NCBI GenBank assembly: GCA_951406725.2
Contig: OX597835.1
Coordinates: forward strand, 434,001-498,000
Length of the DNA stretch: 64,000 nt
Source: Octopus vulgaris
Lineage: Eukaryota
Reading direction: 5' to 3'
Shown: piece after piece, positions 52 through 57,504 of the stretch
How positions within the stretch are numbered: position 1 is the first letter of the stretch
How the letters are laid out: every line of letters starts with the position of its first letter
Made by a program: the position numbers and the translations under genes
The notes under the pieces: generated by a model
Told to the model about the DNA's origin: nothing
The model's database searches: none
Seen by the model: the letters and a program-made list of their open reading frames with translations, nothing else

Positions 52-111
52 GAATGTGATGAGTCCCCTATATTGCTAAGCACTTTATAGGTGCGAAACC
101 AATGGTCACTC
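52..111 (+). ncRNA. Degenerate hammerhead motif (first core C changed to G)
   Basis: GAAU-GUGAUGA-GUCCCCUAUA...UAUAGGUGC-GAAA-CCAAUGG-UC-ACUC. Confidence 0.5.
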
Positions 112-790
112 TATGCTTGGCTATAACTTTTAACTTCCTAAGATATATATATATATAAATACAAATGGGACAAGAACGCAAAACATCCAGATAAGCGGTA
201 CAAAAAACACGGACGGGTCATTCGAAGACTTTAATCTTCAGTCAAGAACCGGATCATCTTCGCAATTTCGGCTGATTAATCTTGAGATTGCTCCAATCTG
301 GCCAGCCCCAAGGAAAAACTAAGCTAAGAGCATTAGATTCCTTGGCTTTCAGTGCAAATGGTCTTTTACACGGCGCTGTGTTTACAATCCTGTAAATAGT
401 AATAATAATGGTATTTATCCTATAAGCTTAAAGCTTATGGCAATCACTGTGCAATGACTAAGGAAAATAGTCTAAGGAAAATAGTCTCGGTAGAAAAAAG
501 AAGGCATTCCTGTCTGCGTGGGAGGTGAACCCACATCCTTTTGTTAACGCGACTAAGTGTATTAGCTTTACATGCGGATAGGAAAGCCTTCTTTTTTCTG
601 TCCTGTCAAGAAATTATATGCTCCTTTATTAGATTATTTTTCTTACTCATTGCATGGTGATCGCCATAAGCTTTAAGCTTATAGAAAAAATATATATATA
701 TATATGGACCAATCTTTGGTCAAAACATATCTAAGTTTATATATATATATACATACACACACACACACATATACCGTACATATATATAGT

Positions 791-865
791 GATAGATAGA
801 TAGATAGATAGATAGATAGATAGATAGATAGATAGATAGATAGATAGATAGATAGATAGATAGAC
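791..865. repeat. (GATA)n microsatellite; representative of many (TA)n, (TG)n, (ATT)n, (GAT)n and (CAC)n tracts in the window
   Basis: Direct reading. Confidence 0.95.
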
Positions 866-961
866 AAACAGACAGACAGATTGATACACACACATTTTGT
901 GAAAGTAACACATTTCTTAGGCAGTTTAAAATAAATACATTGGCAACATAGATTCACTTAC

Positions 962-1159
962 ATTTCCTGGATCGATGTCAATGCCACATCTTTGCAAGAT
1001 ACACTGAAAATCCCCTTTTGAAATTCCATTTATAGAAGCATAATCAACTTCTTCAAAAGCAGTCAATAGTCTATCTTTATTAGCAGAAACAAACTTCCTA
1101 AGGATGTCTTCAATATTCTTGCTGGGTCTTTGGGAAGCTGATTGTTTAGTGTCACCACA
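962..1159 (-). CDS. EFCAB6-like exon ([66 protein letters not shown]), phase 0/0
   Basis: poly-T + tag acceptor, GTAAGT donor; same module as the other repeats. Confidence 0.9.
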
Positions 1160-52657: not shown

Positions 52658-53370
52658 CGAGGGCGACCTGAAAAGTTCATAGGCTGACTATGAAGGAGTG
52701 ATGTTAGAGCTGTGAAATCTTGCAGGCATTCATTTCTCCTCTCTTGTCATTCATAACTGCATTGTTTCTTTCCAAGTAAACTGACATCTGACTATTTTAA
52801 AAAAAGACTTCAAAAGTAACTAGTAGCAACTTCTCTTGAAAACAGACAAAATTTGGTATCATGGTGTTATCAAGTACCTGCAGAAAAAGGGTTTAGCCCC
52901 CAACGACATTCAAAATGACATGATTGTTACATTAGAGCATGACACTGCAGCTTTGTCAACTGCACAAATGTAGGGAGCTGAATCTAGGAGGGGAAGGGAG
53001 AGTCCTGGAGATTACTGTAGGGGTGGATGTCCTACAACTGCCATCACTGAAGAAAACATTGATTGTGTTCACCACATGGTGATTGACTATAAATCAAACA
53101 GCCAATGCTATTAGCATACCCTGTGAGAGAGTGGAGAATATTCTGCACAACGAATTTAGCATGATGAAGGTTTCTGCTCAGTGGTGCCATATCTTCTAAC
53201 ACATGATCAAAAGCACACCAGACTGATCACATCATGAGAAAATCTGACATTGTTTGAGGCAGATCCAGCTGGGCTCGTTGAATGTTACCTAACCCAGTAT
53301 GAGTGTTGAGTTCCTCACTTTGAGCCAGAGACAATCCATGCAATGGATACACATTTCCTCACCTGCTCCA
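52658..53370 (+). mobile_element. mariner transposon 5' remnant
   Basis: TA|CGAGGGCGACCTGAAAAGTT terminus; VIKYLQKKGLAPNDI N-terminal HTH region, heavily decayed. Confidence 0.7.
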
Positions 53371-54604
53371 TTCACAACGTTTGTCCAGCTTTTGTCTTCG
53401 ACTGTTGCAGGTTTAAAAAAATCATTATGAAATATAAAAGTGAAAATTTTTTATCATCAATTTTCACTTTCATATTTCATGTGAATGTGTATGTGTGTGT
53501 GTGTGTGTATGTGTTTGTCCTCCACTGCTGCTTGACAACCAGTCCTCATAACATAGTAGTTTGGAAAAAGGAACCAATTGAATAAGTACCAGGATGAAAA
53601 AAAGAAAATAAGTATTGGAAATGATTCATTCGAATAAAAATTCTTCAAGGCAGTGCCCCAACATGCCGCTGTTTAATGACTGAAACAAGTAAAAAGTAAA
53701 AAAGATATATATATATCGGGCGTTGTGAGTGTTTATTGAGTGAAAATACCTAAAGCTCCACGAGGCTCCGGCAGGGGATGGTAGCGAACCTTGCTGTTCT
53801 CTTTTGCCACAACTTTCTCTCACTCTTTCTTCTGTTGGCCTGCTCGCTTAGCCAGCGGGGTGGCATCATTTGAAGGCTAAAACAATGCAAAGCGTATTGT
53901 GACCAGCGATGTGTAACAACATCTGATAGCCTGGTCGGTCACGATGATATATATATATATACACATAAAATACAAAATGGGACAAGAACATAAAACATCC
54001 AGATAGATGATACAAAGAAAACAAGGACAGGTCATTCAGAGGTTTCTTTCCTCAGTCAAGTTCCAGATTATGTTTACAATTTCAGCTGGTTATACTCGAA
54101 ATTGCTCCAATCTGACCAGCTCCAAGGAAAAACTAAGCTAACAGCAGGTGTTCTTAGGTATTTGTGTTCTCCATTTTTTCCGTCCTTGTTTTCATATACA
54201 TTCGCTGTTTTCTTCCAAGGAATCCATTTGTTCAACTAAACCTTTAAGGCAGTGGCCTCAGAATGACCAGCCACGCAAAATCAAACCTAGCAAAATCGCA
54301 GTTGTGGGAGATACCACTGTCATGCAAATTGGCACCTGTGCCAGTGGTACATAAAAGCACCCATTACACTCTCAAAGTTGTTGGTGTTAGAAAGGGCATC
54401 CAGCTGTAGAAAATCATGCCAAATCAGACTGGAGCCAGGTGCAACCTTCCAGCATGCCAGCTCAGTCAAACCGTCAAGCCCATGCCAGCATGTACAATGG
54501 ACATTAAATGATGATGATGATATATATACAAATATATATATATATACTCATATATCTATATTTACTCATATATATATATAAAATATAATATATAAATATT
54601 ACTC

Positions 54605-55006
54605 TTTTCTCATTTACTTTTTTACTTGTTTCAGTCATTTGACTGCGGCCATGCTGGAGCACCGCCTTTAGTCGAGCAAATCGACCCCGGGACTTATTCT
54701 TTGTAAGCCCAGTACTTATTCTATTGGTCTCTTTTTGCCGAACTGCTAAGTGACAGGGACGTAAGCACACCAGCATCGGTTGTCAAGCACTGCTAGGGGT
54801 ACAAACACAGACACATACATATATATATATATACACATATATACGACAGGCTTCTTTCAGTTTCCGTCTACCAAATCCACTCACAAGGCATTGGTCAGCC
54901 CGGGGATATAACAGAAGACACTTGCCCAAGATGCCACGCAGTGTGACTGAACCCGGAACCATGTGGTTGGTTAGCAAGCTACTTACCACACAGCCACTCC
55001 TGCGCC
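54605..55006 (-). mobile_element. SINE family A copy
   Basis: Reverse complement of the family A sequence. Confidence 0.9.
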
Positions 55007-57464
55007 TATATATGCATATATACATACATATATGTACATACCTACATATATATGTATATATACATGCATATATGGGTACAAGACATCAAACAAACGTAAA
55101 CAAAATGAGAAACGAGAACATAAAAACAAAAACATAGAAAACAATTTTTTTTTAAACAATGAAAGAAACAAATAGAGAAACGAGACAGGCAACATAAAGA
55201 ACATTCCCTTCATCATTTGTCCCCTGTTTTATCTACTCCACATTTCGAAGGTAGGGAAAAGACGCGACTTTGTTAAAACAGTCCTTCCTGCAAAGCAAAT
55301 TAAATAAAATTTGAGATTTTTTGCGGAGGGTTAAAGTGGTAACAAGAACAGGAGAGTAAGAACAAAACAGTAAAAACAAACGGTGAGGGTTGTGAAGCGA
55401 AGACGATGTGAAGTGGTGAACACTGGAGAAACGAGCTTTGAGAAGAGACAGACGAAAGCACATCTTGTCTTTAGGAAGGAAGTGGAAGAAAGGAAGATGG
55501 ATAGCCGTTGGTCACGTGTGAGCAACGAGAGAGTCAAGGAGGAAAAGTAAGAGGGGGAGAGGGAATGGTGAAGGGGAGAGGAGGAGAATAGGGAAAGGGT
55601 GGGAGAGAAAAACAGAAAGGAAGAAAAACGAGAGAGGGAGATAGAAAGAATAGAGATAGGATAGAGTGCGCATCAGAATTATTAAGATAAACCTTACATG
55701 GAAATGGATGCATATTTACATACATATATGTACATACCTACATACATTTATATATACATGCATATGTGGGTACAAGACATCCAAAAAACATGAACAAAAT
55801 GAGAAACAAGAACATATTCATATACATATGTATATATACATACATATATACATATATATATATACATACATACATACATATATATATATACATATATATA
55901 CTCATATATATATATATATACACACATATATACACACAAACATACACACCCTCCTCTTGCTTTCCCTCTTTATATGAAAGAGAGATTTGGAGAGACAAAG
56001 TGAGTGACATCAAAATGTATGTATATATACACACATGTATATGTGTTTCTGTTTTCAAGTGTAAATCTATCCATTGATTTTATGTATGCTTATATTTATG
56101 CTCACCATCAGTAAAATGTGTGTACACATGTACACTTATGCATATATGTGTGCATGGATGCATACACTAAAATGTGCATGCAAATATGTTCACATAGGAA
56201 TGTGAACATACACATATTTATGTACATGTATGTATGTATGTATGTATGTATGTATGTATGTATGTATGTATGTATGTATGTATGTATGTAATTTCATGAG
56301 TAAACTTCCCCATGCATATTGACATTCAGATGCATGTGGTAGTATGCATACATGAATACATGTGTGTGTGTGTGTGTGTGTGTGTGATCAAAGTATACCT
56401 GAGAGTATAAATTTGTATACATCTTCCCACTACGCACACAAATATGCATTTACATACACCCCACCCCATGTGTGTGTGTATGTATGTATATATATACACA
56501 CATACACAACCAGTGTATAAATGAATATATACATTTACAATACACCCTCCCCCACCATGCATCCAAATATCTTAGGGCACACACGTCCTTCATACAATTG
56601 CATATGTGTGTACTGCATCTGCATTTATATTTGCATGTATATGTATTTGTATGTATATGTCTGTGTCAGTGTGCACGTAAAGTGTACAGCTGTGAATACA
56701 TCAGGCTATGATGTCAATTTTTCAGGTGTGTGTGCTAGATTATAAATAAATAAATGCCTGTGTGTGTGTGTGTGTGTGTGTGTGTGTGTGTGTACATGTG
56801 GTGAAGAGAGTCTGTCAGTCTAGCTTACAGCAGATGGAACACAGTGGGAAAATTATGTAACAATAGCACTGAGCAAAGCACCAGTATTCAACAAGAGTCT
56901 TTCGCAGAACAAACAGAACAAGTCTAATGTATAAGTATGCGAACGATGAGTGAATGAATAGTTGCAGAATCAATTCTGCTGGTTATCGAATGGAATGGTC
57001 ACTTTTTACAGAACAGCAGAGTAGGATAAGTTAATGTACATTCTGAAATGAAGCAGCTCAATTAGGTTATCATGTCTATTCTGCCTGTCTCAACTGCACA
57101 GGTATTGTTCTTGAATAGGAAAGAAGGTCATTCAATGCAGGGAAATGTCAAAATCAACAAAGACAGCTGAAAAAGGGTAGGGGCACTTTTTTTTTTTTTT
57201 TTGGAAAGCTTAGACTTTCAAAAGATATTGAACAATATTGAAATATATTTATCTGAAAGTGACTTCAATTGATCCAATAAACACTACCTAGCACTTTGCC
57301 TTTTCGCTCTATTTTTATAAATTAAATTGTCAAATACTTTACAATGTGAATCCATTCCTCTCTAGAATAGATAACTACACTGTAAAAAAAACAATAAGTA
57401 ATAGGACTGTCTATAATGTAGAGTATCAGAGGACAATGAGTTTCTAACATGTATTAAATTATGT

Positions 57465-57504
57465 TTCACTGAGGAGGTTTAATAAGACTGAAACATGTCT
57501 CGAA
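57465..57504 (+). ncRNA. Minimal hammerhead-like motif
   Basis: UUCA-CUGAGGA-GGUUU-AAUA-AGACU-GAAA-CAUG-UC-UCGAA. Confidence 0.55.

Follow-up and report, generated by a model that had tools for sequence, protein, structure and literature searches.

The window considered here is a stretch of 64,000 nucleotides (nt) of the Octopus vulgaris genome (assembly GCA_951406725.2, contig OX597835.1, positions 434,001 to 498,000 of the forward strand). It has a G+C content of 36% and contains many microsatellites. An earlier note, made from the letters of the window alone, had described in it a dense set of hammerhead ribozyme motifs belonging to Penelope-like elements (PLEs). The reading that we prefer, with a probability of roughly 0.78, is that these motifs represent type I hammerheads located in PLE stubs at their 3' ends, that hammerheads of this kind likely cut as dimers, and that the palindrome in their stem III drifts and does not act as a code.

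Hammerhead motifs in the window

Each window motif was used as a query against the genome (2.8 Gb in 227 contigs, which underlies all genome-wide counts), with the query sites A 23834, B 34101, C 37843, D 25290, E 18512, F 56, G 57469 and H 21099. The resulting families are called A to H, and family I is described below. Motif coordinates run from C3 to H17; the minus-strand numbers of the earlier note are the 3' end of each motif. The features are as follows.

56 to 107, plus strand: family F hammerhead; stem III CCAATGG, stem II 32 nt, core position 3 is G
3479 to 3506, plus strand: candidate, possibly a decayed minimal hammerhead; CUGAUGA kept, GAAA lost
18439 to 18512, minus strand: family E hammerhead; stem III CCGATTGG, stem II 53-54 nt
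19351 to 19641, minus strand: C-terminal half of a Hydra-type GIY-YIG endonuclease; its end lies some 840 nt upstream of the hammerhead of family E
21024 to 21099, minus strand: decayed hammerhead of family H; in the family, stem III is CGGCCG and stem II 57 nt
23762 to 23834, minus strand: family A hammerhead, intact; stem III CATATG, stem II 54 nt
25241 to 25270, minus strand: family D hammerhead on the left of an inverted pair; its stem III is CTCTGAG and its stem II 10 nt, with damage in stem I
25290 to 25319, plus strand: family D hammerhead on the right of the same pair; the first base pair of stem I is disrupted
34101 to 34219, plus strand: family B hammerhead, intact; stem III CAGCTG, stem II 99-100 nt
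35041 to 35129, minus strand: family C hammerhead within an inverted insertion, in its left arm (34975-35629); stem III CGATCG, stem II 70 nt
37843 to 37931, plus strand: family C hammerhead, right arm of that insertion (37349-37997); stem III mutated to TGATCG
46489 to 46516, minus strand: family I minimal hammerhead-like motif; core position 6 is U, family stem III CG, copy further decayed
47866 to 47928, plus strand: decayed motif; flanks like family E (18512), by eye
57469 to 57499, plus strand: hammerhead of the old family G; stem III is CATG and stem II 14 nt, with damage in stem I of this copy

All ten main motifs of the earlier note were located. Eight of them have a complete catalytic core (CUGANGA, GAAA, UH), the deviations being G at position 3 in the motif at 56 (plus strand) and A at position 12 in that at 21099 (minus strand). 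The family A copy is the 3' stub of a young Hydra-type element, whose (TA)n end follows 46 nt further on. Next to the family H copy, 21150-21258 is an inverted fragment of its own upstream flank. The family C body at 35630-37840 (plus strand) is AT-rich, non-coding and more than 2 kb long, and is probably an unusually long 3' untranslated region.

Three further sites had been called decayed. The copy near 46480 has indeed decayed further, but it is a member of family I, in which a core variant is fixed. The motif at 47866 resembles family E by eye only, and BLAST against the family consensuses and the collected loci gave no match for it; the motif at 3479 has one 78% relative (L241), which likewise lacks GAAA, and is at best a decayed minimal motif.

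The exact core combined with a palindromic stem III occurs at 7 sites in the window, against 0.95 +/- 0.86 sites (maximum 3) in 40 block-wise dinucleotide shuffles of it. One of the seven, at 27416 on the minus strand (AGCT), is probably a chance match. When a stem I of at least 3 base pairs (bp) is added to the descriptor, 2 sites remain against 0.025 in shuffled sequence. The word "dense" is justified in part: one filter gives a modest excess (6 sites against 1.6 expected per 64 kb, P 0.006), with two of the six supplied by a single inverted pair, whereas another gives 4 against 2.15 expected (P 0.17). Motif density here exceeds the genome average by a factor of two to four at most.

A search of Rfam with E values up to 5 gave no hammerhead family among the best 150 of 182 matches listed, and only microsatellite-driven matches of the microRNA type. 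The type I order of the core with an open stem I is present in all eight family consensuses. In families A, B, C, E, F and G the stem II arms fold better than mononucleotide shuffles (z -3.1 to -7.1); the arm of family H has a z of -0.3 and that of family D does not fold. Stem I at the core comprises just 1-2 bp in the consensuses of C, E and G. The identification of the window motifs as Penelope-type type I hammerheads with a self-complementary stem III is supported; they would cleave after H17.

Families, palindromes and host elements

The genome queries returned first-look candidates, 40 of which were scored for each family, and their numbers (A 1464, B 1844, C 1396, D 938, E 1563, F 1013, G 120, H 770) are not copy numbers. 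Each of the seven palindromes named in the earlier note proved to be the commonest stem III of its own multi-copy family when only copies with GAAA and UH also intact are counted: CATATG in A (53/64), CAGCTG in B (30/32), CGATCG in C (22/32), CTCTGAG in D (20/37), CCAATGG in F (6/24), CATG in G (15/21), and CCGATTGG in E (6/34), where it is level with its own CpG-decay form. Family H adds an eighth palindrome, CGGCCG (10/23). The flanks are, as had been noted, unrelated between families, the eight consensuses having no alignable sequence in common. The term "minimal" does not suit the five of the eight families whose stem II spans 54-99 nt (lengths by family: A 54, B 99, C 70, D 10, E 54, F 32, G 14 and H 57 nt).

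To count motifs without regard to the palindrome, 120 evenly spaced 10-kb blocks (1.2 Mb) and 6 shuffles of them were scanned. This palindrome-blind scan gave 24 sites against 1.0 in shuffled sequence, and a perfect palindrome in 18 against 0.17; without one tandem array (L179), 17 sites and 11 perfect palindromes remain. The simplest explanation for so strong an enrichment of a self-complementary stem III is dimer pairing. In the eight families, the predicted free energy of stem III is -0.9 to +6.0 kcal/mol as a hairpin and -4.6 to -14.1 kcal/mol as a homoduplex; that is, stem III is predicted to be unstable within one copy and stable as a duplex of two. Extrapolation from 30 motifs in 1.19 Mb suggests a genome total of about 70,000 motifs with an intact core and a perfect palindrome, and the arms of many of them exceed in length those of the published Hydra motifs.

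Hydra-type coding sequence accompanies families A, B, E and F. The RWK and DKT motifs were judged by eye against published protein descriptions; family B has RWK and DKT, and family A has RWL and DKT. The Hydra-type order, namely reverse transcriptase (RT) followed by an endonuclease of GIY-YIG type at the C terminus, with CxxC and CxH around conserved E and N, was found in families A and B. The family A hammerhead lies about 600 nt behind open reading frames (ORFs) of up to 833 amino acids that encode both domains. Family B has a full-length copy (L359) that consists of a repeat with a hammerhead, a broken ORF, a second repeat with a hammerhead, and (TA)n; the two hammerheads are 4.59 kb apart, and the ORF, spread over several broken frames, contains RWK, DKT and CxCX5C motifs recognized by eye. 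Long Asn-rich stretches occur between RT and endonuclease in the Hydra-type ORFs of both families (L051-L058, L359). For family E, a same-strand endonuclease lies upstream in 10/30 loci, among them the window remnant at 19351-19641. For family F, a same-strand Hydra-type endonuclease lies upstream in 5/20 loci, and an RT remnant (L239) is found 1.3 kb upstream of the window copy, just beyond the window. Pfam detected no RT or GIY-YIG on the Hydra-type ORFs or on the window endonuclease remnant. The family A end is covered by four assembled contig sets, whose contigs are uninformative on ends, strand and level.

Two other clades were considered and rejected. Naiad elements have an N-terminal endonuclease and no canonical hammerhead, whereas here the endonuclease is C-terminal and hammerheads are present; an assignment of the window endonuclease to Neptune was rejected on domain order and motifs.

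The view that the genome hosts mostly non-coding PLE or retrozyme families is not supported: of the eight families, four have a link to Hydra-type RT or endonuclease, two a weaker one, and two none. When 228 loci were read to +/-1.5 kb, 169 were solo, and 57 inverted but just 3 direct partners were found. Upstream homology among these loci ends at graded distances, leaving ragged 5' ends. Inverted partners together with graded upstream homology correspond to the pattern of truncation and inversion described for PLEs and not to retrozyme arrays; within these 1.5-kb distances, no array of retrozymes of the non-LTR kind (without long terminal repeats) was found for the window families.

The remaining features of the window are transposon fragments and repeats. 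The ORFs at 4129-4521 (plus strand), 6756-7157 (minus), 40970-41437 (minus) and 5508-5891 (minus) comprise Tc1/mariner transposase fragments, an RT fragment of the long interspersed element type and a weak EF-hand match; the transposase and RT fragments are unrelated to the hammerhead motifs. Dispersed repeats of about 200 nt that resemble short interspersed elements stand beside microsatellites at 3602-3818, 18062-18278, 29569-29785, 38273-38489 and 54800-55018. A 36-nt tandem repeat and a long microsatellite of the TAT/TAC type occupy 38945-39484 and 63437-64000.

Dimer cleavage and its alternatives

Palindromic dimer hammerheads of PLEs are already established in print, the palindromic helix III and the dimers being treated in PMC4209133, in the legend of Fig S8 of PMC3088659 and in the review PMC6765202. 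In the reading that we prefer, the host copies would be 5'-truncated and inverted members of several families of Penelope-like retrotransposons. A transcript that spans the ORF and both of its flanking terminal repeats would carry two identical hammerheads, and these two could pair via stem III and stem I, cut after H17 and trim the RNA. The natural partner would presumably be the second repeat of the same transcript, so that like meets like by position. With the partner fixed by position, selection would need only self-complementarity, and the palindrome would likely vary by drift under that need and not as a selected family code. The window stubs have no same-strand partner of their own family, and in the inverted pairs (C and D) a motif would lie beside its own antisense copy. 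The solo and inverted stubs of the window are likely to be mostly inert fossils.

Two variants of the motif bear on the alternatives. The first is the long stem II arm. A pattern with an arm of 40-70 nt and a six-letter C..G stem III gave 40,872 matches genome-wide, against 1,643 for the reversed pattern used as a control, and stem II is at least 40 nt long in 16/29 strict clusters of the census described below. The stem covaries in the A lineage: among eight copies, both partners have changed in 6 of the 18 predicted pairs, but most of these changes separate two subfamilies, so that the independent events are few. A 9-nt pairing in family A (23745-23834, minus strand) between the stem II arm and the 3' tail that follows the cut site, considered as an alternative to an extended stem I, was set aside because by eye the sister lineage does not clearly retain it.

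The second variant is the core of family I, which includes the site near 46480. The family has 34 copies in the sequence read, 23 of them within a random 1.2 Mb. Position 6 is U in 33/34 copies, position 7 takes all four bases, and position 17 is A, U or C but never G (0/34). Genome-wide exact matches number 15,730 for U6 against 180 for A6, and the controls give 0. In 2/34 copies a Neptune-type endonuclease lies upstream on the same strand (the end of an ORF in L216 and a remnant in L138); the Neptune features seen upstream of the motif are a CX2-5CxxC linker and a GIY-YIG at the C terminus. A second family (L045), built in the same way, has kept A6; its stem III, ACGU, equals that of family I, and the two could cross-pair. 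We regard both the long arm and the U6 core as modest variants.

A live alternative, although we consider it rather improbable, is that the motif works chiefly as a monomer, with help from the protein of the element, or serves as a structure that binds protein, with the palindrome and the long arm kept for that purpose and not for the cleavage of dimers by RNA alone. Activity in vitro is low even for dimers (PMC4209133), the long arms covary, and family I has reached at least 15,730 copies with a U at position 6, where a change lowers hammerhead activity (PMC3088659, section 8); the Anolis element discussed below points the same way. However, dimer pairing is the simplest account of the palindrome-blind enrichment of a self-complementary stem III, and the free position 7 and the avoidance of G at position 17 in family I are as in a cleaving motif. 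A related proposal, which we put forward tentatively and regard as possible but unlikely, is that family identity resides in the long arm and stem I and not in stem III, that the arm is a conserved docking site for the RT-endonuclease of the element, which gates cleavage, and that the U6 ribozyme is slowed or protein-dependent while position 7 stays free and position 17 still excludes G. The covarying arm of 40-100 nt occurs in at least 39,000 motifs, which published short-armed descriptors would miss; short-armed searches would therefore undercount both such motifs and the Hydra clade.

The earlier note had proposed that the palindrome is a pairing code, distinct for each family, by which only like copies activate each other; a selected code of this kind could act through the palindrome alone or jointly with stem I. 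Its appeal is that all eight window families differ in stem III and that computed cross-pairing between them is poor; sister lineages of family A differ as well (CATATG, CATGTG, CACGTG and CATG), and stem I and stem III jointly separate 27/30 ordered pairs of families that share a palindrome. However, two perfect palindromes that differ will mismatch in any case, the partner is already present on a repeat-ORF-repeat transcript, and eight random families would all have different palindromes with a probability of 0.35. In a census of 2.05 Mb, which gave 234 sites in 48 clusters, 29 strict clusters remained after 19 were dropped (non-strict, not C..G, or not self-complementary), and these use 20 palindromes. 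Sharing between unrelated families is at or above the chance level: 15/406 cluster pairs have a palindrome in common, where a uniform null with the lengths kept predicts 9.2 (P 0.04 for this number or a higher one). Sharing is also seen in Hydra magnipapillata, where CTTTAAG is common to 5/14 families listed in File S2 of PMC8557442; the same file gives Hydra-1_Obim the stem III CCAATGG, as in the otherwise different motif of family F.

The long-arm matches show the same tendency. Stem III is visible in 91 of the first 100 of the 40,872 matches listed, with 57 perfect, 24 G.U-compatible and 10 neither, and about 6% are expected to be perfect by chance. Counted by eye among the matches listed, CATATG, CAGCTG, CGATCG, CAATTG and CACGTG make up 51/57 of the perfect palindromes, and CATATG, CAGCTG, CGATCG and CACGTG each occur on three to six arm types; CGATCG is kept by relatives with arms of 21, 39 and 70 nt. 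Sister variants are, moreover, cross-compatible. In the A lineage, CACGTG, CATGTG and CATATG form a wobble path. The predicted energies are -8.5 and -7.0 kcal/mol between neighbours on it and -10.3, -6.0 and -7.0 kcal/mol for the respective like pairs, so that CATATG with CATGTG equals CATATG alone. For CTCTGAG with CTCAGAG the prediction is -12.5 kcal/mol, against -7.9 and -7.4 for the homoduplexes, and odd-length palindromes in general are predicted to pair better as heterodimers.

By the hammerhead topology, stem I too is formed across the partners of a dimer when A15.1 and U16.1 come from different motifs. Cross-cleavage would therefore need a match in both stem I and stem III, and most unrelated families are predicted to be mutually blind as a by-product of their divergence. 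For joint compatibility of the two stems, label permutation expects 1.05 ordered pairs and 3 are seen, which gives no sign of avoidance, at low power. That the palindrome is a private family code is not supported, and we consider a selected code very unlikely.

Least probable of all is that most families are non-coding, retrozyme-like and propagated through short circular RNAs: the surroundings of D and G yielded no ORF, tandem hammerhead arrays do occur elsewhere in the genome, and retrozymes derive from Penelope repeats (bioRxiv 10.64898/2026.07.22.740005), but the coding link of A, B, E and F, the scarcity of direct partners and the ragged 5' ends speak against it. The arrays in question are two. 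At L179:3082-7693 (G000:C1:20000001-20010000), seven identical short-armed hammerheads (CCGG) form a tandem array with a period of 353-359 bp, on both strands, as in a retrozyme-like satellite. At G000:C1:5011305-5012441, three identical long-armed hammerheads (CAATTG) stand in direct tandem 534 bp apart and are a candidate natural cis-dimer.

Several observations weigh against reading the motifs as dimer hammerheads of truncated PLEs with a drifting palindrome. The hammerhead of an Anolis element needed the protein of the element and was dispensable for insertion in vitro (PMC11167929), and dimer cleavage may therefore not be the whole story. As to the hosts, the CxCX5C linker is absent from the family A ORFs read; a single directly repeated full-length copy (L359) was read; the coding link of family H is weak (one match at another locus of 20); and that of family C is indirect, through a 76% relative (L321) with a Hydra-type endonuclease upstream. 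Using tblastn with Hydra and Neptune queries (E 1e-3), no coding partner was found within 1.5 kb for C, for D (30 loci) or for G (20 loci). As to the palindrome, the eight of the window are nearly orthogonal, with 1/28 hetero pairs (E x F, -8.3 kcal/mol) as stable as the own duplex of a partner, and among palindrome-sharing families only 3/30 ordered pairs could also form a 4 bp stem I. Many clusters of the census are single, partly decayed copies, some of which may be distant kin, and CpG decay could turn CGATCG into CAATTG and CACGTG into CATATG.

Comparison with known systems

A paper by Lunse, Weinberg and Breaker (2016) reportedly, to judge by its title, deals with small PLE hammerhead variants that cleave as dimers. 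Neither stem II arms of 40-100 nt nor a high-copy U6 family was found in the literature searched, and this paper, figures and some supplements lay outside that search. The value of the present motifs is in their scale and natural variation. The families can serve as test sets for the role of the hammerhead in PLEs: motifs alike in stem III but not in stem I, wobble intermediates, arms long or short, and U6 against A6.

The comparisons that follow refer to the parts of each paper covered here. The closest likeness is to the Hydra-clade PLEs of Craig et al. 2021 (PMC8557442), which share with our families the C-terminal GIY-YIG, RWK, DKT and (TA)n flanks, CxCX5C (in family B), a 3' hammerhead with a near-palindromic stem III, an additional U.U at the stem II base (in family C), and palindromes common to several families. 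The Hydra motifs in File S2 of that paper, however, have a loop 2 of 3-9 nt and an arm of less than about 30 nt, in contrast to the 54-99 nt found in 5/8 families here. Hydra-clade elements are described there as "generally under 3 kb", whereas the family B unit is 4.6 kb, and family A has an Asn-rich stretch instead of the CxCX5C linker. Few Hydra-clade families are reported outside cnidarians (PMC8557442); here the family A endonuclease alone gives 17,055 first-look candidates.

The metazoan Penelope-like repeats of Cervera and De la Pena 2014 (PMC4209133) are alike in being type I, with a palindromic helix III and presumed dimers, and in occurring mostly as solo truncated copies or close inverted pairs, with many families per genome. 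They differ in their core variant, which is U3-A8 and not U6, and long arms are not described in the parts covered. Among the dimeric hammerheads of the repeat type (Perreault et al. 2011, PMC3088659), the natural variant at position 6 is A6C, from one phage and with low activity. Metazoan non-LTR retrozymes (PMC7229834; bioRxiv 10.64898/2026.07.22.740005) share the type I hammerheads, the kinship with Penelope repeats and, in amphibians, the need for dimers, but they are defined by short head-to-tail arrays, whereas the window families are dispersed or inverted stubs.

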